Of a DNA stretch of 24,000 bases, positions 5,404-17,581 are shown piece after piece. This DNA comes from Patescibacteria group bacterium (lineage in GTDB: Bacteria > Patescibacteriota > Saccharimonadia > CAILAD01 > BJGX01). The notes beneath the pieces were generated by a model. It did no database searches. It saw only the letters and a list, made by a program, of their open reading frames with translations, and was not told the origin of the DNA. The stretch is from NCBI GenBank assembly GCA_030917065.1, contig JAUPVL010000042.1, forward strand, positions 2,419 through 26,418, given 5' to 3'. Made by a program: the position numbers and the translations under genes. Every line of letters begins with the position of its first letter. Position 1 is the first letter of the stretch.

Positions 5404-5436
5404 CCCACCCTGGACTCTGCAGGAGTCCAGGGTGGG
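5404..5436. terminator. 14-bp GC-rich hairpin between convergent polA and a small membrane gene
   Basis: cccaccctggactc (5404-5417) pairs with gagtccagggtggg (5423-5436) around loop tgcag. On the minus strand it is followed by TTTTCTGTTT, giving an intrinsic terminator for the 5454..5651 gene. It lies 12 nt after the polA stop, so it may also stop polA transcripts. Confidence 0.7.
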
Positions 5437-5453
5437 ATATAGGCGACTTGCGG

Positions 5454-5651
5454 CTAGTCACTCAAGTGGGAGATATCACCCCACCAAAAGAATATTCGAA
5501 CTACAAAACAGGCAAAGACGACTATTAGAAATGGGATGGCGTATATTGGCTTTGCATTGAACAGTACTAGTACAAACATCGCCAAGGCGGATAGGATAGA
5601 TATACCCATTAGGCTTCTGTCAATCCATACGGGTCGGTCGGCAATATCCAT
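5454..5651 (-). CDS. Small two-helix membrane protein (65 aa), hypothetical
   Basis: Good SD (AGGAG, 6-nt spacing) precedes the ATG on the minus strand. There are two hydrophobic segments (ISILSALAMFVLVLF, AIPFLIVVFACFVVRIFFWW). A TTGCAT-16-TATAAT promoter-like sequence lies upstream on the minus strand and a terminator downstream. Confidence 0.6.
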   Translation of the reverse strand: MDIADRPVWIDRSLMGISILSALAMFVLVLFNAKPIYAIPFLIVVFACFVVRIFFWWGDISHLSD

Positions 5652-7954: not shown

Positions 7955-8082
7955 TTAAGGGGTTATATTATAATTGCTTATTCACTTTCGCTCTTATGCT
8001 AGCAATTGTATCCTACTAGGAGCTCATCAGTACAGACCTTATCTGTAGAGTGAATTTGAAGAAGGAGAGAAGAGGAGGGGTG

Positions 8083-8154
8083 GAGCCGCAAGGCACCAGG
8101 GAGTATGAATAGTCCTTGAAGGATGTTTTCAGGGACTCCCTGGTGCTGCGGCTC
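8083..8154 (-). terminator. Long (about 20 bp) GC-rich hairpin starting at the stop codon of the 78-aa ORF; terminator-like without a U tract
   Basis: gagccgca-ag-gcaccagggagt (8083-8104) pairs with actccctggtgctgcggctc (8135-8154), with a 2-nt bulge. On the minus strand it is followed by a pyrimidine tract (cccctcctcttctctccttcttc), not a T run. Confidence 0.45.
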
Positions 8155-8389
8155 ACCACCTGCGGGCGCGGTCGAGATCTCGTTGGAGATCACGGTTCTG
8201 GGCTCGCAGGTCCTCAGCACGACGGCGCTGGAGCACTAGCAGGGTGATGAGGACGACCACGACAGCGATCAGTCCGAACACCACCGGGTAGCTTGCACAT
8301 GCCGCGATGATGAACACTCCCGCAGCTAGGGCGAATATCCCTTTCGCCAGGTTGTCGAAGAACTTCTGGACGGGCTTGGACTCAGCCAA
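8153..8389 (-). CDS. High-GC small membrane protein (78 aa) with Arg-rich helical tail; hypothetical
   Basis: SD AAGGAG precedes the ATG (revcomp of ctctccttctg). One or two hydrophobic helices (GIFALAAGVFIIAACASYPVVFGLIAVVVVLITLLVL) are followed by QRRRAEDLRAQNRDLQRDLDRARRW. Local GC is about 62% (37/60 at 8221-8280) and third positions are mostly G/C by eye. Confidence 0.6.
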   Translation of the reverse strand: MAESKPVQKFFDNLAKGIFALAAGVFIIAACASYPVVFGLIAVVVVLITLLVLQRRRAEDLRAQNRDLQRDLDRARRW

Positions 8390-8441
8390 GTTTCTCTCCT
8401 TCTGTCAAGGTACGGCTCAGATACTTTCCGGGCCATAGGAT

Positions 8442-8470
8442 AGGATAGCACAAACACTATAAACTGTCAA
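8442..8470 (-). promoter_or_regulatory. Near-consensus sigma-70 promoter for the 78-aa ORF
   Basis: On the minus strand: TTGACA (8470-8465), a 17-nt spacer ending in TGc, then TATCCT (8447-8442). Confidence 0.5.
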
Positions 8471-8526
8471 TACTATTTAACACTTTTTATGATGAGTATC
8501 ATACAGGAGTAGGCTATAATAGTATT

Positions 8527-10380: not shown

Positions 10381-10388
10381 TATAGTTT

Positions 10389-10416
10389 TTGTAAGATTGT
10401 TCAGGTATGTTATTCT
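10389..10416 (+). promoter_or_regulatory. Possible promoter directly after the holA stop
   Basis: TTGTAA (10389-10394), a 16-nt spacer ending in TGt, then TATTCT (10411-10416). This is a weaker match than the other island promoters. Confidence 0.3.
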
Positions 10417-10628
10417 AAAGCTGATACTACAAAAGTATAGAACCTCTAGAGTAGAAAGGCATTGCTACATGGAGCATGTAGGCAGTAGCGAAATACAATC
10501 ATTGCTTGTCCTCGTTAAGCCGAAAAGCATAATTTGTTCAGAGTGTCACGGAGTCGCAGTTTTAGATCAACACAAATCCAATTGTTCTCGTTGGATTTCG
10601 CCCAGCGCATACAAAAAGGAGAACGGTC

Positions 10629-10856
10629 ATGGATAAAGATTTGGAGCGCACACTTGATGCCGAAGAACGGGCGGGATGTCTTGGTGTTTTGCAGTTTGTT
10701 GCCGCTATTGTTGCAACGGGTTGTGTACTTTTCGCCGATATCTGGTGGCTGACTCGTGTGGCTTATGTAGTTATTGCTATTGGTATGTGGCTGGGTGCAT
10801 GGCGCAATCTCACGAATCCATGGCGACTTATAGATCGTAAGGATAACAATGACTGA
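10629..10856 (+). CDS. Small two-helix membrane protein (75 aa), hypothetical
   Basis: SD AAGGAG with 7-nt spacing precedes ATG 10629. Two hydrophobic helices (CLGVLQFVAAIVATGCVLFA, VAYVVIAIGMWLGAW). Its stop overlaps the next start (ATGACTGA, 10849-10856), implying translational coupling. Confidence 0.55.
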   Translation: MDKDLERTLDAEERAGCLGVLQFVAAIVATGCVLFADIWWLTRVAYVVIAIGMWLGAWRNLTNPWRLIDRKDNND

Positions 10857-11226
10857 TCAAGAAAACCCGTCTTTTGATGATTGGGCAACTCGAGTGAAGC
10901 CCAGTGAGTACGCAGAGTATCTTGGAGGACACTTCCGTCGACCTTGGATGTCAAAAGTCGACCTAGCTGACCGAGCATTAATTGCATCTTTTCTAGAAAT
11001 GCAGATGCCTGATGGTCGTACTATCGCACATTGGTTGGATGAATTACCTGAGGCGGAGGACGAAATACGCCTCTTGCGGGCCGAGAACGAAGAAGCCCGC
11101 CATGCCATCAATGAGGCGCTTGGGTGTGCGTTCATTCATCACATGTGCGAATGCGGTGATACTGTGAATTGCGGTGTATGCCACATGGTTGCTCGGCTAC
11201 AGGCGTCGTCAGGGAGACAGTCCTAG
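10849..11226 (+). CDS. Hypothetical 125-aa protein with a C-terminal Cys/His cluster (putative Zn site)
   Basis: It overlaps the upstream ORF by 8 nt. It contains the acidic helix ELPEAEDEIRLLRAENEEARHAINEA followed by HHMCECGDTVNCGVCH. No family recognised. Confidence 0.5.
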   Translation: MTDQENPSFDDWATRVKPSEYAEYLGGHFRRPWMSKVDLADRALIASFLEMQMPDGRTIAHWLDELPEAEDEIRLLRAENEEARHAINEALGCAFIHHMCECGDTVNCGVCHMVARLQASSGRQS

Positions 11227-11360
11227 AATAAATATAGTCGTCAAAGAGTAGTAATATTTGGTCAGTAATGACCATCTAGCTCTTTGGCGGCGTCTATCTA
11301 AAACTTCTTAGTTTTACTGATGAGCTCTAGATAAGGGCGAAATAGACAAACAAAACAAAG

Positions 11361-11954: not shown

Positions 11955-12716
11955 ATGCAAATTATAGAACTAGCAACCAAACTCCAATCTGTTGGGCTTA
12001 GCGAAAAGCAAGCTCGAGTTTATGTTGCTGCACTGTTTTTGGGCCCTAGTGCCGTACAAAAGATCGCCGAGCAAGCCGAGATCAATCGAGCCACTACCTA
12101 TGTGATACTGGACGAACTGGCTGCTATGGGGCTAGTAAGCGAATCTACAGAAGGTAAGAAGACAGTATTTGTGGCCGAGCCACCTCAGTCGATTGAGCGC
12201 TACCTAGATGCACAGAACAAGCAGATATCTGATAAGCAAGACGAACTCAAGAACATCTTGCCTAGCCTCAAAGAAGTGTCGAGATCATCTGACGGAGTAG
12301 AGACTCCAGTAGTAAGGTTTTATAAGGGTATTGAGGGCTTAAGATCTAAGACTAGTATTTATGCTAGAAAAGCAAAACCAAAGAGTATGGTGTATGGATT
12401 TTCAAATTTCGATCAGGTATTAAAAGAATTTCCAGATATACTGCAATCTGGACCTAGTCTTAGGAGTAGAAAAAAAATATCGAGTAAATTAATCTATTCA
12501 CTTAGCGATGGCGAAATCAGATCTGACAAAAAACTGTTAAGAGAAACGAGAAAGATAGATCAACCTATCAGTGCAGACATCAATATATATGAAAATGCAG
12601 TTGTAATATCTACATACAAAGGCAAAGACTCCGTAGGTGTAGCTATCGAGAGCAAAGATATAGCTAGTGCCATGAAGCAATTATTTGAGATGGCCTGGAA
12701 AAATAGTAACAAATAG
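11955..12716 (+). CDS. TrmB-family (winged-helix) transcriptional regulator
   Basis: N-terminus LQSVGLSEKQARVYVAALFLGPSAVQKIAEQAEINRATTYVILDELAAMGLVSE is the TrmB-type HTH, followed by a coiled-coil (QNKQISDKQDELKNILPSL) and a C-terminal domain. I prefer ATG 11955 over track start 11907, which would overlap the promoter. Confidence 0.7.
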   Translation: MQIIELATKLQSVGLSEKQARVYVAALFLGPSAVQKIAEQAEINRATTYVILDELAAMGLVSESTEGKKTVFVAEPPQSIERYLDAQNKQISDKQDELKNILPSLKEVSRSSDGVETPVVRFYKGIEGLRSKTSIYARKAKPKSMVYGFSNFDQVLKEFPDILQSGPSLRSRKKISSKLIYSLSDGEIRSDKKLLRETRKIDQPISADINIYENAVVISTYKGKDSVGVAIESKDIASAMKQLFEMAWKNSNK

Positions 12717-12729
12717 TTGTTGCAATATA

Positions 12730-12758
12730 TTGACAAAATGTAAGTATTTTGGTATACT
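12730..12758 (+). promoter_or_regulatory. Near-consensus promoter with no gene behind it
   Basis: TTGACA (12730-12735), a 17-nt spacer ending in TGg, then TATACT (12753-12758). It starts 14 nt after the TrmB-like stop. Confidence 0.6.
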
Positions 12759-13058
12759 TCTCTTTGTCAGGCCAACGTACCATGTTTGAGTGATAGCTAA
12801 GACTCAGTCGAAAGAACGTCCAATGCTGCTTAAAACAGAGTGCAGAGGTCGCCGAGAAGTCCTCGGCATAGACACGAGCAATGGAGAGATACCGTGGACG
12901 CTGCCTTCTCCACCACCTGAACATTTCCGGCTCCGCCGGCGCAACCAACACATTTCTGACTGAACCCACGCGACGCAAGTCGTAGACACGAGCGAAAGCT
13001 CGCAACACCAAACGGTTCTGTCGGGAACTAACTGGACCAGTCATTGGTCCTTCGTCTA

Positions 13059-13095
13059 GGGCTCGGTGCCCCCGTAACTTGAGGGCACCGAGCCC
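13059..13095 (+). repeat. 13-bp hairpin related to hairpin b of the 3' T modules
   Basis: gggctcggtgccc (13059-13071) pairs with gggcaccgagccc (13083-13095). It shares the GGCYCG...CGRGCCC frame with 15324-15349 and 15930-15953. CTACA follows twice (13099-13103 and 13113-13117). Confidence 0.55.
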
Positions 13096-13116
13096 AGACT
13101 ACACTTCGATAACTAC

Positions 13117-13141
13117 AACCAGGCATTATGCCTGGTTTTTT
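13117..13141 (+). terminator. Intrinsic terminator ending the candidate ncRNA
   Basis: aaccaggca (13117-13125) pairs with tgcctggtt (13129-13137) and runs into a T6 tract (13136-13141). Confidence 0.75.
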
Positions 13142-13258
13142 CGTACAAAATGATACAAATAGCCAATTTAATGTAATTATTAATATATCTATGACACTAA
13201 ATACACGTGTTTTAACAGGTATAGAGCTATATAAATACAAATAAACTGACAAAAACTA

Positions 13259-13287
13259 TTGACAAGTTTTAATATATTTGCTATACT
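13259..13287 (+). promoter_or_regulatory. Near-consensus promoter of the second island unit
   Basis: TTGACA (13259-13264), a 17-nt spacer ending in TGc, then TATACT (13282-13287), inside an AT-rich spacer (13142-13330). Confidence 0.6.
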
Positions 13288-13339
13288 ACCAATCAGTTCT
13301 TTGAAGTGCCAATTTCCAAAACCTTTATAGGGGGATTCT

Positions 13340-13531
13340 GTGGCTAGCACGTTCACTCGCAAGTGTGGCATGGCCACTCGCACTCCTTCTGCCTTGACTT
13401 GGGCAGTCGTGGTCGAGTGCGGCAACGGGGAGGTGCACTACTTCGAACGTAGTGCTTGCCACCCCGACGCCGTCGTGGCGTACATCCAGCGGGAGTTTCC
13501 CGACTGTGACTACGTCATGGCTCTGGCCTAA
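13340..13531 (+). CDS. Hypothetical 63-aa protein with high-GC codon usage
   Basis: GTG start preceded by GGGGGA (13330-13335). GC3 is 47/63 (75%) with only 2 A-ending codons, a coding signature typical of a high-GC donor. No family recognised. An alternative ATG start lies at 13370 without an SD. Confidence 0.5.
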   Translation: MASTFTRKCGMATRTPSALTWAVVVECGNGEVHYFERSACHPDAVVAYIQREFPDCDYVMALA

Positions 13532-14441
13532 CGACTTCGGATCGGGGGCTTGATAAGTCCTGGCAACAGAAGCCTGTAGAGTGAGCAAAAAGAAGCTCTA
13601 TAGACACTATCCGAGTATGCTCTCGACAAAAGCCGCCTGGTAGTAGGCATTGAAGCCCGAGCAATCGAGCAACTACCAACCTCGTCTGATATATCAGACG
13701 AGGAGCAAGTCTGCTGGTAAAGTGCCAGCACTGATGAGCCCGAACTATCTAGTTCAACTAGGGCGAAACTGCACTTTGTAAATACTAATTCTGTGGATGT
13801 GGCCAGTGCTACATATTAAAACATACCAATAGCAGATTGGCCGCCCACAGAAATGGTAAATACAATATCCGAACCTTGTCATTATGAGCAGTAGCTTTCG
13901 AACCGAGTATATAGGTATATATATTTAGTTCGAAAGCTATGTGCTTTCAAAAAGATAGTAAGGTCACAGCAAATGGCGGGACTGCTGCCTCACTGATGAC
14001 CTGCCTGTAGTATGCGCGTTTCCCGACACGATCGGGCCGATGCATCTACGGGCGAAATCATGAACTGATATATATGAGAGTATATATCAGCTTCAACTGC
14101 TTGGGTGTCGCAGCTCTTCGTGAAAGCGGATGAGCGCCACCCGAGCAGGATATCGCTGCCACAACAATCTGGTCGGAGAGGCATCAACTTCGACGCACTG
14201 CTCAAAACGGCGTCAAGTCGGGTGAGAGTGGTGTTCTGCGTACGTCCTTCGCAGACAGTAGGGAGGTAATAATTGATCCGAGCCCGTGCAGAATCCTGCG
14301 CCGCAAACAACGCGACTCTGATAAGAGTGGGTAAAAAAAAGTCGGATCCGGGGACCCTAGTGGCCAATGATGATGTTCCTTCCCCGGTGCACGAGTGGGT
14401 GAAACCACGAGTGTTCATGAAAGGGAACGTCAAGCTCGCGG

Positions 14442-14484
14442 CAGCTCGTCGCTCTCCGTCAGTAGACGGATTGAGCGCAGCTGC
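14442..14484. repeat. Hairpin module H, copy 1 (43 nt)
   Basis: Sequence cagctcgtcgctctcc-gtcagtagac-gga-ttgagcgcagctgc. It folds as cagct/agctg + cgctc/gagcg + tccgtc/gacgga with loop agta. Confidence 0.7.
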
Positions 14485-15005
14485 CCATATTGCGGAACCC
14501 GTCCACGACCTTGCCAGTCGCCTGGTAAGATAGTAGATACGTTGTTCTGCGAGGTCTGAGTCAATCGCCACCCAAAAAGGTAACGTGGGGTTGAAACACC
14601 CCTGGCGGTAAGATCCCGAAAGAGCTGACGTAATGCTCGAAAAAATGTGCTAACATAGGCCTTTTTCCTTACGATAAAATTCAGATAGTCGTGAGGTCGT
14701 CCACCCCTTTGGGGTCCCACTAGTTGGGGCTCCGGAGGGTCTCAACAAGAGAGCTTGAATTATCAAGCTTTGCTGCTGAGACCCTAAAAAGTCTCGAACC
14801 TTGTCATTTGATGTTAAGATTTTGCTGGATGGAGCATAGAAGTGCAGATGTAATCCAGCTACTAGGGTGTCAGTGCGCACATAAGACCCCCTTCTGAGAA
14901 GTGACTAGAGTGGACTGCCCAAACGCAGACAGCTAGACAACTTTGTCAACTCAGATTAAACCAAAAAAAGCCGATAACGCTCCAATAATTCGGCCCATAT
15001 CGCGA

Positions 15006-15048
15006 CAGCTCGTCGCTCTCCAGAGTCATCTGGATCGAGCGCAGCTGC
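15006..15048. repeat. Hairpin module H, copy 2 (43 nt)
   Basis: Sequence cagctcgtcgctctcc-agagtcatct-gga-tcgagcgcagctgc. The outer arms match copy 1 except for one position. The inner stem is tccaga/tctgga, so three base pairs changed on both strands. It lies about 65 nt upstream of ATG 15114. Confidence 0.7.
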
Positions 15049-15113
15049 TAAATCCTTGAGTTTCAATCCCGCGACTCAAGCTCGTACCACACAACACCAC
15101 TGAAGGAGGTGAA

Positions 15114-15311
15114 ATGGACGAGACCAACGACCTCGACGGCATGATCCAGGCGGCGGATCTCATGCTCACGGTCATGATGGCCGAGGGCATGACCCCCGCA
15201 GAGATCTGCCTGGAGTTCTTCGCGATGGGCCACGAGAGTGGCCACATCTGCGCACAGGCGCACGAAGAGCCCCTCGAGGACGACCCCAAGGTGTCCGCCG
15301 GCTACCTGTAA
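15114..15311 (+). CDS. Hypothetical acidic 65-aa protein with very high GC3
   Basis: A perfect SD AAGGAGGTGA (15103-15112) precedes ATG 15114. GC3 is 60/65 (92%). Local GC is 36/60 at 15121-15180. No family recognised. Confidence 0.65.
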   Translation: MDETNDLDGMIQAADLMLTVMMAEGMTPAEICLEFFAMGHESGHICAQAHEEPLEDDPKVSAGYL

Positions 15312-15360
15312 GTGCCGGCACCCGGCCCGAATCTTCACAGATTCGGGCCCCTACCAAAGA
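15288..15360 (+). repeat. 3' module T, copy 1 (two hairpins + CTACC motifs)
   Basis: Sequence aaggtgtccgccggctacctgtaagtgccggcacccggcccgaatcttcacagattcgggcccctaccaaaga. Hairpin a is gccggc (15297-15302)/gccggc (15314-15319), with the ORF stop TAA in its loop. Hairpin b is ggcccgaatct (15324-15334)/agattcgggcc (15339-15349). CTACC occurs at 15302-15306 and 15351-15355. Confidence 0.7.
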
Positions 15361-15432
15361 AGGTTACAATATAATCTCTTTTGGTCGGGAAAGTCCCGAC
15401 TCACTCAGTGAGTAGCACCTTGGAGCAATCAA

Positions 15433-15885
15433 ATGGAAGATTTCAAAGAGTTGTTCGATCGGTTTCTGACCGTCGTGCGTGTGTCCAACGACATCCCTGA
15501 CGAGATGACTATCGAGGAGTTTCTGAGCAAGAAGTGGAACTTCTGCGACCCAAGCCCTTGCAACATGAGAGTGGAGGTCACTTGGGATGGCAGCTACTCC
15601 CTGTGGAGCCTTCGCTTCGACAGCACGGGTCGAGTCAACGATGAGCGCCTCTGGATCCGTCGCGACTGCACGCATGAGGAGGCCATCACCCAGGCCATCG
15701 GCCAAAATATGGGCGGCAACGTTGTCGAAATCTTGACCAAAGTCATCCCAGACATTCAGATGACCTCTGGGACTGGTGACGATTCGGAGGAGTTCTGGAT
15801 CGTTTGGGAGTGGTACAGCCCAATTTTCACCGGGAAGGAGGACAGTGGTCTGCAGGACGGAGATTGGCAAGAGGCCTTGCTCTAG
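15433..15885 (+). CDS. Hypothetical Trp-rich acidic 150-aa protein
   Basis: SD GGAG (15422-15425) with 7-nt spacing precedes ATG 15433. Third positions look mostly G/C by eye (not counted). Two tight 5' UTR hairpins lie at 15384-15400 and 15400-15412. It runs in the same direction as the flanking modules. The 187-aa antisense ORF 15364..15927 is treated as a shadow ORF. Confidence 0.6.
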   Translation: MEDFKELFDRFLTVVRVSNDIPDEMTIEEFLSKKWNFCDPSPCNMRVEVTWDGSYSLWSLRFDSTGRVNDERLWIRRDCTHEEAITQAIGQNMGGNVVEILTKVIPDIQMTSGTGDDSEEFWIVWEWYSPIFTGKEDSGLQDGDWQEALL

Positions 15886-15893
15886 AGAGTGCA

Positions 15894-15964
15894 AAGGTGA
15901 CCGCCGGCTACCTGTAAATGCCGGCACTCGGCTCGAGTCTTTTGACTCGAGCCCCTACCAAAGA
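15894..15964 (+). repeat. 3' module T, copy 2
   Basis: Sequence aaggtgaccgccggctacctgtaaatgccggcactcggctcgagtcttttgactcgagcccctaccaaaga. Hairpin a is conserved. Hairpin b is ggctcgagtc (15930-15939)/gactcgagcc (15944-15953), with two compensatory pair changes relative to copy 1. CTACC occurs at 15908-15912 and 15955-15959. Confidence 0.7.
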
Positions 15965-16007
15965 TATCAAGCACATTGATGCATTTGGTAAGAAATCAAT
16001 AATATAC

Positions 16008-16036
16008 TTGACATAAGAAGTTTAGTTTGGTATAAT
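16008..16036 (+). promoter_or_regulatory. Consensus promoter of the DHH-family gene
   Basis: TTGACA (16008-16013), a 17-nt spacer ending in TGg, then TATAAT (16031-16036). Confidence 0.6.
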
Positions 16037-16061
16037 ACTGCATTAATTAGACAAATTAGTT

Positions 16062-17171
16062 ATGCAACAAGAATTGACCCCCAAACAACAAACTGTAGAG
16101 CTTATCAAACAAGCCAACCACATACTGCTCGTTACTGGCAAAAACCCCAATAACGACCAGCTTAGTGCTATGGTAGCTCTGGAACTTATCCTGAAACGTG
16201 CAGGCAAACAAGTGAGTGCGATAGTCACTAGTGAACTACCCAAGGTAGCCAAGATACTAGACACCCACACCATTAGTAGAGATCTGACCGGTATAAGGGA
16301 TTTTGTAGTACGACTAGACACCACCAATGTAGAAGTAGACAAACTACGCTATGAGGTCAATGATAACAATATCGAAATAATAGTATCACCGTTTTCAGGC
16401 AATTTTACTTCCCAAGATGCTAGTTTTGACTACGGAGCATACAAATTTGACTTAGTGATAGTACTAGGAGTGAGCCAGATAGCACGTATAGACTCTATAC
16501 TCGAGCAAAACCCTACAATATTTGATGGGTTGCACTTGGTAAATATCGATTGCCATAGAAGCAACGAACAGTACGGTAGTGTGAACTTTGTAGACGCCGG
16601 TGCTAGTAGTGTTTGTGAGATGCTAGTAGGTATCATCGAGTCAGTTGCTCAAGGCATGATTGATTATCATGTAGCAACAGCATTACTTGCCGGTATCATG
16701 GGAGCAACTCAGGGATTTACAAATCAAAACACCTCTGCCAAGAGTCTTACTATAGCTGCCCAGATGATGAGTGGTGGTGCCAAGCAACAAGATATAGTCA
16801 ATACATTGTTTGCAGGGCAATCAAATACTGCCAACACTGAGAGCAATAGAGCTGATCGCAATAATGCCAAGACAGAGCTCAAATCACATCAATCAAAAAA
16901 TATCCGCAAAGATGAGCCAAAAGCACAAGAAACTATTGCCCAAAAACTAGCCAAACAAGGTATAGAGCTCACCGAAGAAGGTGTCGTAGATGCCAGGACA
17001 GGCAAGGTACTAGAAGAAGAAGTATTGGATGATGACTTGGACAAAATAAACGATGGGGATGAGCAGAGCTCAAAAAAGTTCAAAAATCCGCAAGCGGATC
17101 AGTCGCACCAGGAAACTTCAAGGGCAAATACACATCAGCAGGCATCCAAGGGCTCTAAAAAAAACCGATAA
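16062..17171 (+). CDS. NrnA-like DHH-domain protein with degenerate catalytic motifs and a low-complexity C-terminal tail
   Basis: It is collinear with B. subtilis NrnA (recalled from memory), but key residues are replaced. ILLVTGKNPNNDQLSAM stands where NrnA has HRHVRPDPDAYGS. VIVLGVSQ replaces VIVCDTAN, NIDCHRSN replaces KIDHHPNE, and GIMGATQGF replaces GIVGDTGRF. There is no DHHA1 GGGH domain; about 130 residues of K/Q/E/N-rich tail take its place. Confidence 0.6.
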   Translation: MQQELTPKQQTVELIKQANHILLVTGKNPNNDQLSAMVALELILKRAGKQVSAIVTSELPKVAKILDTHTISRDLTGIRDFVVRLDTTNVEVDKLRYEVNDNNIEIIVSPFSGNFTSQDASFDYGAYKFDLVIVLGVSQIARIDSILEQNPTIFDGLHLVNIDCHRSNEQYGSVNFVDAGASSVCEMLVGIIESVAQGMIDYHVATALLAGIMGATQGFTNQNTSAKSLTIAAQMMSGGAKQQDIVNTLFAGQSNTANTESNRADRNNAKTELKSHQSKNIRKDEPKAQETIAQKLAKQGIELTEEGVVDARTGKVLEEEVLDDDLDKINDGDEQSSKKFKNPQADQSHQETSRANTHQQASKGSKKNR

Positions 17172-17356
17172 GTCCTCTCGTAAGAGCATATCTTTGGTAT
17201 TTAGAGAACTAATATTAACAACCAAGAGCATTGCTTAAATACCTAGCTTAGCAAATTATCTGCTAGACAATCATCCCAGAGTATAGTAGGATATATCAGT
17301 TCTATAACCTTAGAACTTTCATTTCTGGCAACAGAAACAGATCGAGGAGGAATAGA

Positions 17357-17581
17357 ATGTCCTTACTCTGCGAACATACTCAGGCATTGCTGTTTGGTAG
17401 AAATATCACAATATGCGGCCATTGTCGTAAGAGGATTGTAACCCAGAAGGGAAGAAGAAGTTGCCCAAATTGCCATACAGTATTTCTGTACTGTGCATCC
17501 GACAGTCGTCAGCTCGGAGGGTCTGGAGATGAATTGGCGAGAGAGTACTTCCCTGATCTTGTGTATCAAGGAAGCATATAG
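17357..17581 (+). CDS. Small zinc-ribbon protein (74 aa), hypothetical
   Basis: A strong SD GAGGAGG lies 7 nt before ATG 17357. Two CxxC pairs (CGHC ... CPNC) fit a zinc ribbon. It sits in a 540-bp intergenic gap. Confidence 0.5.
   Translation: MSLLCEHTQALLFGRNITICGHCRKRIVTQKGRRSCPNCHTVFLYCASDSRQLGGSGDELAREYFPDLVYQGSI

Follow-up and report, generated by a model that had tools for sequence, protein, structure and literature searches.

This report concerns a stretch of 24,000 nucleotides (nt) from a Patescibacteria group bacterium of the Saccharimonadia (GenBank contig JAUPVL010000042.1), hereafter "the window", and in particular its segment 12730-15964, which lies between the genes for a TrmB-type regulator and a DHH protein. 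We conclude that this TrmB-DHH segment is a real locus, one for gene expression that is of old standing and conserved within a clade of Candidatus Saccharibacteria. The explanation that we favor, with a probability of roughly 55%, is that of a polycistronic RNA and small-protein locus that is processed by a hammerhead ribozyme and diversifies by recombination. The evidence comes from a covarying type III hammerhead and the long structured RNA behind it, from the synteny of the interval among relatives and from the variation of small genes between repeated hairpin modules. Relatives of the locus, designated here by L numbers, were gathered through a search with the TrmB protein, which led to six Candidatus Saccharibacteria metagenome-assembled genomes, and through exact-protein look-ups, which added further contigs, several of them from activated sludge; one metagenome scan was run and returned L032 as its sole relative.

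Rfam scans at relaxed E-values (E <= 10 over 12500-16200 and E <= 1 over the whole window) returned three matches to family RF00008, with E-values of 1e-4 to 1e-2:

13704-13773, + strand: type III hammerhead HH-C, 29.8 bits, predicted cleavage at C13711/U13712
11291-11348, + strand: type III hammerhead, 35.0 bits, predicted cut at C11298/U11299
7980-8055, - strand: type III hammerhead, 36.6 bits, predicted cut at C8048/U8047

The match at 13704-13773 (Hammerhead_3) was the only meaningful one in the segment. The core pattern CTGATGAG-N(4-34)-CGAAA occurs three times, against 0.02 occurrences expected. We aligned 11 copies from six lineages, i.e., the three from the window and orthologues from L017, L020, L021, L032 and L033, and the core elements CUGAUGA and GAA(A) proved to be invariant in 11/11, as did C17, so that the full catalytic core of the type III family is present. 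The cleavage triplet is GUC, AUC, CUC or UUC, which conforms to the N-U-H rule, and the A15.1-U16.1 pair is found in every copy. Stem I, of 5-8 bp, differs among the paralogues (UGCUGG/CCAGCA, UAAAAC/GUUUUA, UACAGA/UCUGUA), and stem II exists in several variants (GCCC/GGGC, GACCC/GGGUC, GCUC/GAGC, GCCUU/AAGGC), while stem III ranges from 3 to 8 bp and carries in L033 a compensating one-base insertion on both strands. The topology is that of type III: loops close stems I and II, and stem III is left open. From one paralogue to another none of the three stems is the same, and among orthologues all of them covary, in the case of stems II and III of HH-C across five lineages. On these grounds the three copies in the window are regarded as genuine hammerheads, pending cleavage assays. 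The structural conservation extends into the surrounding sequence: for the HH-C domain, RNAalifold predicts 76 pairs from four lineages, 16 of them with compensatory changes; a hairpin at 13681-13702, which ends 9 nt before the predicted cleavage site, has 10/11 pairs changed on both sides; and a predicted long-range helix between 13569-13573 and ~13948-13952 encloses the whole domain. A further CUGAUGA...GAAA arrangement at 13993-14056 was rejected as an additional hammerhead, with three unpaired bases between core and helix and with CUGAUAA in L020, which loses G8; it is situated in a hairpin that is conserved and covaries, and may be what remains of a degenerate ribozyme.

Each of the hammerheads stands 66-177 nt 3' of a small open reading frame (ORF) and a hairpin, the ORFs in question encoding a conserved 78-amino-acid (aa) protein with two transmembrane (TM) segments, ORF75 together with ORF125, and ORF63. 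Ahead of the second and third ribozymes these ORFs vary by lineage, while the ribozyme and its position are constant. The hammerhead at 7980-8055 is 97 nt after ORF78 (8153-8389, - strand, 0.61 GC, the two-TM membrane protein), which has a minus-strand promoter at 8470-8442 (TTGACA-17-TATCCT), and it is 25 nt before the start codon of an ABC-transporter gene; it is conserved in L017 and L032, and together with ORF78 it accounts for a peak of guanine-plus-cytosine (GC) content at 8001-8500. The hammerhead at 11291-11348 terminates a segment of ~975 nt (10381-11355, + strand) that includes ORF75, which has two TM helices, and ORF125, which bears a Cys/His motif. The entire segment is missing from L017 and L018, where holA runs directly into the rpsT terminator; the same hammerhead is found beside rpsT in L021 and L033, behind different ORFs. 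A 12-mer, CTGGCAACAGAA, occurs twice in the window (0.13 expected), at 13560-13571, within the conserved domain that precedes the third hammerhead, and at 17325-17336. The latter copy lies in the variable spacer between the DHH gene and truB and immediately precedes ORF74 (17357-17581), which is small and Cys-rich; in L004, L029 and L033 other small ORFs occupy the spacer.

Clustered hammerheads that flank variable genes have been described in prophage-like regions of bacteria, and polycistronic RNAs bearing them were cut in vitro (Perreault et al. 2011, PMC3088659). The arrangement reported here resembles those clusters in having several hammerheads within a few kb, beside small genes or short blocks of inconstant identity, and in the proposed role, which is to cut a polycistronic RNA into gene-length pieces. 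It differs from them in its setting, a Saccharibacteria (Patescibacteria/Candidate Phyla Radiation) chromosome with housekeeping genes around the ribozymes and neither integrase nor phage genes, and also in that all three copies are of type III and one of them heads ~1.3 kb of conserved structured RNA. Our literature search found no report of a hammerhead or other self-cleaving ribozyme in Saccharibacteria (Patescibacteria/Candidate Phyla Radiation).

That structured RNA, downstream of HH-C, is free of ORFs, and in all of the relatives an ORF-free stretch of 0.9-1.3 kb comes after the hammerhead. Over its first part, 13774-14490, the predicted structure has 225 pairs, which are maintained at 99.8% across six sequences, and slid controls gave 34-40% pairing. 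Fifteen of the pairs are changed on both sides, as compared to 7.4 +/- 1.6 in shuffled alignments, none of which (0/500) reached the observed number. One-nt indels in relatives rule out that 13774-14490 is coding, and no ORF is conserved there. A profile built from this RNA finds its first third in L020 (E 2e-26) and its last third in L033 (E 3e-19); the post-ribozyme RNA is conserved but modular. An identical 14-mer, CGAACCTTGTCATT, is present at 13870-13883 and at 14795-14808, each time right after a large hairpin domain. Covariance models for GOLLD, ROOL, OLE, HEARO, RNase P, tmRNA and group I and II introns had no match at E <= 10 over 12500-16200 or at E <= 1 over the whole window.

The elements of the segment, together with the promoter at its right border, are as follows:

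12730-12758, + strand: promoter P1, TTGACA-17-TATACT with a TG extension, 11/12 in the consensus scan; conserved in L017, L040 and L042
12764-13145, + strand: Unit 1, a putative stand-alone structured small RNA of ~380 nt, minimum free energy -142 kcal/mol, ending in an intrinsic terminator
13117-13137 and the following U tract, + strand: that terminator, the sole site in the segment that fits the definition of an intrinsic terminator
13259-13287, + strand: promoter P2, predicted start of the hammerhead transcription unit, TTGACA-17-TATACT with a TG extension, 11/12
13340-13531, + strand: ORF63, a small Cys-rich orphan
13536-13703, + strand: hairpins of the 3' untranslated region ahead of the ribozyme, including a conserved CCUGGCAACAGAAGC and the covarying hairpin 13681-13702
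13704-13773, + strand: hammerhead HH-C
13774-14490, + strand: part 1 of the ORF-free structured RNA, 24 helices, with covariation and indels
14436-14487, + strand: hairpin module M3, copy 1, whose 14436-14484 forms a direct repeat with copy 2
14488-14999, + strand: optional non-coding segment between the M3 copies, containing M1
14736-14785, + strand: M1, a long leader hairpin
15000-15048, + strand: M3, copy 2
15114-15311, + strand: ORF65, an acidic orphan with a GGAGG ribosome-binding site
15288-15360, + strand: module M2, copy A, consisting of hairpin 1, hairpin 2 (GGCYCGAR...YUCGRGCC) and a tail, CCCCNACCARAG; a repeat with copy B
15433-15885, + strand: ORF150, an acidic orphan and the cargo of the M2-flanked cassette
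15894-15964, + strand: M2, copy B
16008-16036, + strand: promoter P3 of the DHH gene, outside the locus proper, 12/12 in the consensus scan; conserved in L017

The -35 and -10 elements of P2 and its first transcribed bases are conserved between the window, L017, L020, L032 and L033. The consensus scan found no promoter-like site before ORF65 or ORF150, and there is no canonical plus-strand terminator between 13138 and the DHH gene. As for Unit 1, its 3' half is kept in L017, L038, L040 and L042, whereas L038 has another sequence in place of the 5' half; no homologue was found in the more distant relatives.

In all of the relatives recovered, the TrmB-DHH interval measures 2.2-5 kb and follows a common plan with variable content, and its synteny spans a range of TrmB identity from 93% to ~70% (L017, L038, L033, L020, L032). 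In L017 and L038, whose backbone is ~80-87% identical to that of the window, the segment is present at backbone-like divergence. L033, L020 and L032, with TrmB at ~70%, retain P2 and the ribozyme domain along with parts of the downstream RNA; pieces of the same set are also found in L019 and L021, the contigs of which stop within the hammerhead domain at an identical alignment position. Since every relative recovered has a syntenic version, we take the locus to be an old, vertically inherited feature of the clade and not a recent insertion. Several other contigs (L018, L024, L029 and many Logan contigs, among them L039-L042) break off within the interval or at its border, with several of the Logan ends falling on the M3 repeat, and the pattern points to microdiversity among strains or to repeats on which assemblies break. 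An earlier note on this DNA had read the similar promoters at both borders as a possible sign that the DHH promoter was duplicated or captured by an insertion. The synteny speaks against such an insertion, and the two promoters prove to be 65% alike over 31 nt, with the shared bases essentially limited to the TTGACA and TGnTATAAT consensus; as this much likeness is expected of any two strong promoters, we reject the duplicated-promoter origin.

The neighborhood of the locus in the relatives is informative in another respect. L020 has a transfer-messenger RNA (tmRNA) gene and four tRNA genes inside the TrmB-DHH interval (L020 13393-14194), L026 has the order ORF65 homologue, tmRNA, ORF150 homologue, tRNA (L026 814-1159), and the interval of L024 likewise includes ssrA/tRNA genes (L024 666-942). 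The contigs of L029, L030 and L025 begin with the 3' end of tmRNA and continue with small ORFs, including a homologue of ORF150. In these relatives, then, ssrA (the tmRNA gene) and three or four tRNA genes are interleaved with homologues of ORF65 and ORF150, and the neighborhood of ssrA appears to have been the ancestral state of the locus. In the lineage of the window the interval is without ssrA, which implies that the gene was lost or moved from this site and is now elsewhere or absent.

Three hairpin modules recur among the versions of the locus. M1 precedes small ORFs in L033, L020 and L026, and seven of its 30 pairs have compensatory changes. The two copies of M3 differ by covariation in the apical stem (CCGUC/GACGG vs CCAGA/UCUGG). 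Hairpin 2 of M2 is 97.7% paired across nine copies from six lineages, and 5/10 of its pairs are compensatory (0/500 shuffles), while the differences of L004 in copy B compensate one another within the hairpin; the tail CCCCNACCARAG is invariant. M2 follows ORF65 and ORF150 in the window, and in L017, L024, L025, L026 and L033 it follows or adjoins small ORFs. Some possible identities of M2 were considered and set aside. It is not a tRNA-like minihelix, as the tail has 7 nt, does not read NCCA and is without a T-loop; nor is it a copy of a tmRNA 3' end that might have served as an att site, there being no resemblance to the tmRNA 3' end of the relatives (...CCAGCUCCAC). A search for the complement of the tail, UGGUNGGGG, which could pair with it, gave no convincing partner. 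A tail like that of M2, ACCCCACCAAAAG, is present at 5474-5490 (+ strand) after a short hairpin, downstream of a 959-aa gene and of a terminator-like hairpin at ~5404-5440, so that CCCC(N)ACCA may mark 3' ends more widely in this genome.

The segments between the repeated copies come and go. L038 has a single M3 and a single M2 and is without both 14484-15000 (517 nt) and 15361-15893, the latter with ORF150. In L017 the segment between the M3 copies is shorter, with ~340 nt missing, and an unrelated ORF of 112 aa replaces ORF150 between the M2 copies. L004 is 98.5-100% identical to the window in the segment and 80-85% identical in the flanking genes, and over 14400-15900 it differs by only 0-1%, as compared to 15-20% in the flanks. 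This near-identity is best explained by a recent exchange.

The three small ORFs, judged by synonymous-biased divergence, by in-frame indels and by the existence of an ORF150 family, are in our assessment real genes. ORF63 and its orthologue in L017 differ mostly at third codon positions, and the start codon is GTG in the window and ATG in L017; its sole homologues are 81-84% identical, and distant relatives have unrelated small ORFs at the same position. ORF65 (isoelectric point, pI, 4.1) has homologues of ~60% identity in L033 and L026, that of L026 being located upstream of ssrA, and its indels relative to L017 are in frame. ORF150 (pI 4.2) belongs to a small family with six homologues of ~145-154 aa and 32-96% identity, which adjoin ssrA/tRNA genes and/or precede the DHH gene where the contigs reach far enough. 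Its AlphaFold model, a confident one (predicted local distance difference test score, pLDDT, 84.6; predicted template modeling score, pTM, 0.82), has no structural match in PDB or BFVD. Matches of ORF150 to the giant proteins P0003 and P0008 were weak, involved Ig-like beta-hairpin repeats and were put aside as uninformative, and Pfam, PHROGs, NCBIfam and PADLOC contain nothing for any of the small ORFs. The small proteins of these loci are nearly all acidic, with a pI of 4.1-4.9. Their genes are distinguished by GC content at third codon positions (GC3), which is 0.73 in ORF63, 0.91 in ORF65 and 0.73-0.91 over the three, vs 0.36-0.45 in backbone genes. The excess, 0.7-0.9 for small ORFs including ORF78 against 0.3-0.45 for neighboring housekeeping genes, persists in L020, L026, L029 and L033, lineages that are 20-30% diverged, and it fits either a recombination-associated GC bias or repeated acquisition from donors of high GC content. 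Saccharibacteria usually have Actinobacteria as hosts.

The backbone of the window has ~42% GC and consists of tightly packed housekeeping genes (an ABC transporter, fpg, holA, rpsT, the TrmB-type regulator, the DHH protein, truB, rpsO, pnp and RNase J). The segment has 50.9% GC against 41.9% in the remainder, with maxima of 0.63-0.65 in 150-nt windows at 13400-13549 and 15200-15349, with non-coding RNA parts of ~49-53% and with two AT-rich spacers, one of which (13146-13293) has 23%. The elevated GC content described in the earlier note was therefore real, and its range of 52-62% was too high for the segment as a whole. Its portrayal of an ORF-poor and hairpin-dense island agrees with our analysis: ORF63, ORF65 and ORF150 amount to 843 nt or 26% of the segment, and the minimum free energy of folding, relative to dinucleotide shuffles, has z = -5.7 for 12764-13145 and z = -10 for 13290-14000. 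So does its description of consensus promoters, a terminator and repeated modules, which we find as three near-consensus extended -10 promoters, one intrinsic terminator and two pairs of direct repeats. The two minus-strand ORFs at 13990-14571 and 15364-15927 have no match in Pfam, PHROGs, NCBIfam or PADLOC; the former is broken by 1-nt indels in relatives and the latter is antisense to ORF150. As the note had stated, the segment contains no tRNA (nor tmRNA) that ARAGORN could detect and no recombinase-sized ORF, and no integrase was found in the 24-kb window or in related loci. The segment has no Rfam match at the gathering score, and blastn against 50,697 phage records gave zero matches; scans of viral contigs with hammerhead and M2 patterns produced only chance matches in coding DNA (L023, L043, L044, L045). 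No insertion sequence, prophage, integrative and conjugative element or model from Pfam, PHROGs, NCBIfam or PADLOC accounts for the segment, and Rfam explains only ~70 of its 3235 nt. The assertion that it holds no system that can be named is thus right for an RNA and small-protein locus of this kind, and it is only partly right in that a member of a known family, the type III hammerhead at 13704-13773, and two others in the window were overlooked.

The preferred explanation, a ribozyme-processed and recombining polycistronic locus, can be stated as follows. P1 would transcribe a terminated small RNA of ~380 nt. P2 would make one long RNA with ORF63, the 3' hairpins, the hammerhead, the ~1.3 kb of structured RNA, ORF65 and ORF150; this co-transcription is suggested by the absence of a promoter-like site or canonical terminator in between. 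Cleavage after C13711 would uncouple the mRNA of ORF63 from the downstream RNA, leaving the former with a 2',3'-cyclic phosphate 9 nt past a strong covarying hairpin and the latter with a 5'-OH end that is base-paired in stem I of the ribozyme, and with such distinct ends the two halves could differ in stability and in level of expression. M1 upstream and M2 downstream of the small genes probably define or stabilize the ends of cistrons. The repeated copies of M3 and M2 would act as handles of homology, between which segments may be deleted, duplicated or exchanged by recombination, and exchange plausibly follows natural transformation, for which Saccharibacteria are competent (PMC10633639). 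High GC and GC3 would then follow from the constraints of RNA structure combined with frequent recombination and its bias, or from repeated acquisition.

A number of points weigh against this explanation. Cleavage, the boundaries of transcripts and co-transcription are predictions from sequence. No hammerhead in the window is detected at the Rfam gathering score (29.8-36.6 bits vs 48.5), and the orthologues of HH-C in L033 and L032 (37.4 and 39.2 bits) are also below that threshold; we ascribe the low scores to short stems and to loop insertions, which amount to 19-26 nt in stem II of some copies, and the threshold is a curation cut-off and not a structural feature. Stem III of HH-C in the window has only 3 bp and a bulged 2-bp extension. 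The structure with 225 pairs was derived from the same close (~85% identical) sequences on which it was evaluated, and this inflates the percentage paired. M2 cannot readily be cast as an intrinsic terminator, because its hairpin is followed by CCCCNACCARAG and not by U residues, and its invariant tail, CCCCNACCA, is not accounted for by this explanation. A GC3 of 0.73-0.91 is equally expected from acquisition from a high-GC donor, and the near-identity of L004 could instead reflect very strong selection. A 5'-OH end made by a ribozyme can also target an RNA to decay by RNase J, as at the glmS ribozyme, so that the effect on stability could go either way.

Four other explanations were weighed. 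The ~1.4-1.8 kb from the hammerhead domain to ORF65 might be a single new large and ornate non-coding RNA, on the scale of GOLLD, ROOL or OLE, with the hammerhead serving to free its 5' end and the ORFs as mere neighbors. We consider this unlikely. The ~1.3 kb without a conserved ORF on either strand, the 24 well-maintained helices with their 15 compensatory pairs, the predicted long-range helix around the hammerhead domain, the similarity to distant relatives and the ORF-free stretch in all of them are what such an RNA would display, and GOLLD, ROOL and OLE are likewise long, GC-enriched, ORF-free and heavily paired. The proximity to tRNA and tmRNA genes in the relatives also recalls GOLLD and ROOL, which often have such neighbors. 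The architecture is not fixed, however: L038 is without 517 nt and L017 without ~340 nt, all that remains is the first third in L020 and the last third in L033, the helices are mostly local hairpins, and no large-RNA family of Rfam matches at E = 10, so that the content is better described as modular and partly dispensable. An integron-like cassette system, in which M2 and perhaps M3 would be the recombination sites of a site-specific recombinase encoded elsewhere, is very improbable in our estimation. The likeness to attC cassettes resides in small orphan ORFs that are each followed by a conserved imperfect-palindrome module, in one orientation and downstream of a strong promoter, and that are present, absent or replaced between strains: the ORF150 cassette lies between 73-nt direct repeats, is precisely absent from L038 and has other cargo in L017, and the module follows ORF150 homologues even in distant lineages. 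Neither the 24 kb nor the related loci have an IntI-type integrase, however, and nine M2 copies are without the attC boxes R' (GTTRRRY) and R'' (RYYYAAC) and have instead the invariant single-stranded tail. Homologous recombination between repeats of 70 nt is sufficient for the deletions and swaps, and the fact that the modules always run in the direction of transcription, together with the compensatory changes, is equally compatible with a role at the RNA level.

The locus might also be what is left, after decay, of one or more integrative elements (a prophage, satellite or genomic island) with an ssrA/tRNA cluster as their target, with the small ORFs and the ribozyme as foreign cargo, which we hold to be unlikely. 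Genes for tmRNA and tRNA are classic integration sites, and as in ssrA/tRNA islands a variable segment of atypical composition is found, in relatives, in the neighborhood of such genes (L020, L024, L026, L029, L030), with the GC3 contrast already noted and with content that varies between strains; bacterial hammerheads are, moreover, often associated with prophages (PMC3088659). What the locus does not have is an integrase, a phage-like protein in PHROGs, a match among the phage records, att repeats, ssrA or tRNA genes in the interval of the window, or a direct repeat of a tRNA or tmRNA 3' end, neither M2 nor M3 being like CCAGCUCCAC. The order of promoter, hammerhead and other core elements is syntenic to ~70% TrmB identity, as fits vertical descent, the other two hammerheads are beside housekeeping genes (ABC transporter, rpsT), and the locus is present in all members of the clade seen so far. 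Finally, an assembly chimera or a contaminant of higher GC content, which the jump in GC and the many contigs from other samples that break inside the interval might bring to mind, has a negligible probability. More than 20 independent assemblies (JGI, ENA, Logan) cross both junctions with identical or near-identical sequence (99.9-100% identity), which excludes a chimera and disposes of the concern that the earlier note had raised, and diverged orthologous loci share the order of elements.

The type III hammerhead is a known family, and what is new, according to our literature search, is the phylum and the context in which it is found here; the ~2 kb of conserved structured RNA, the three hairpin modules and the three families of orphan proteins are undescribed. 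The genomes of Saccharibacteria, like those of other Patescibacteria, are tiny and contain very little non-coding DNA, and where over 2 kb of a conserved locus is given over to structured RNA in such a genome, a function is implied. The role of bacterial hammerheads has been a standing question since hundreds of them were found in 2011, and a 24-kb stretch with three of them, every one preceded by a small orphan gene and adjoined by housekeeping genes, provides a setting free of prophages in which to ask it. The long post-ribozyme RNA, M1, M2 and M3 are candidates for new RNA motifs, and all of these, like the orphan protein families and the cassette-like variation between strains, are amenable to tests in strains of Saccharibacteria that are genetically tractable and naturally competent. 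We would tentatively go further and entertain, as a possibility of lower probability than our preferred explanation, that the hammerhead heads an undescribed, Saccharibacteria-specific class of structured RNA, 1 kb or more in length, that is released by self-cleavage and carries swappable small-protein cassettes bracketed by M1, M2 and M3. If this were true, these bacteria would have an RNA-centered system for diversifying small acidic proteins, possibly for epibiotic interaction with their host bacteria.

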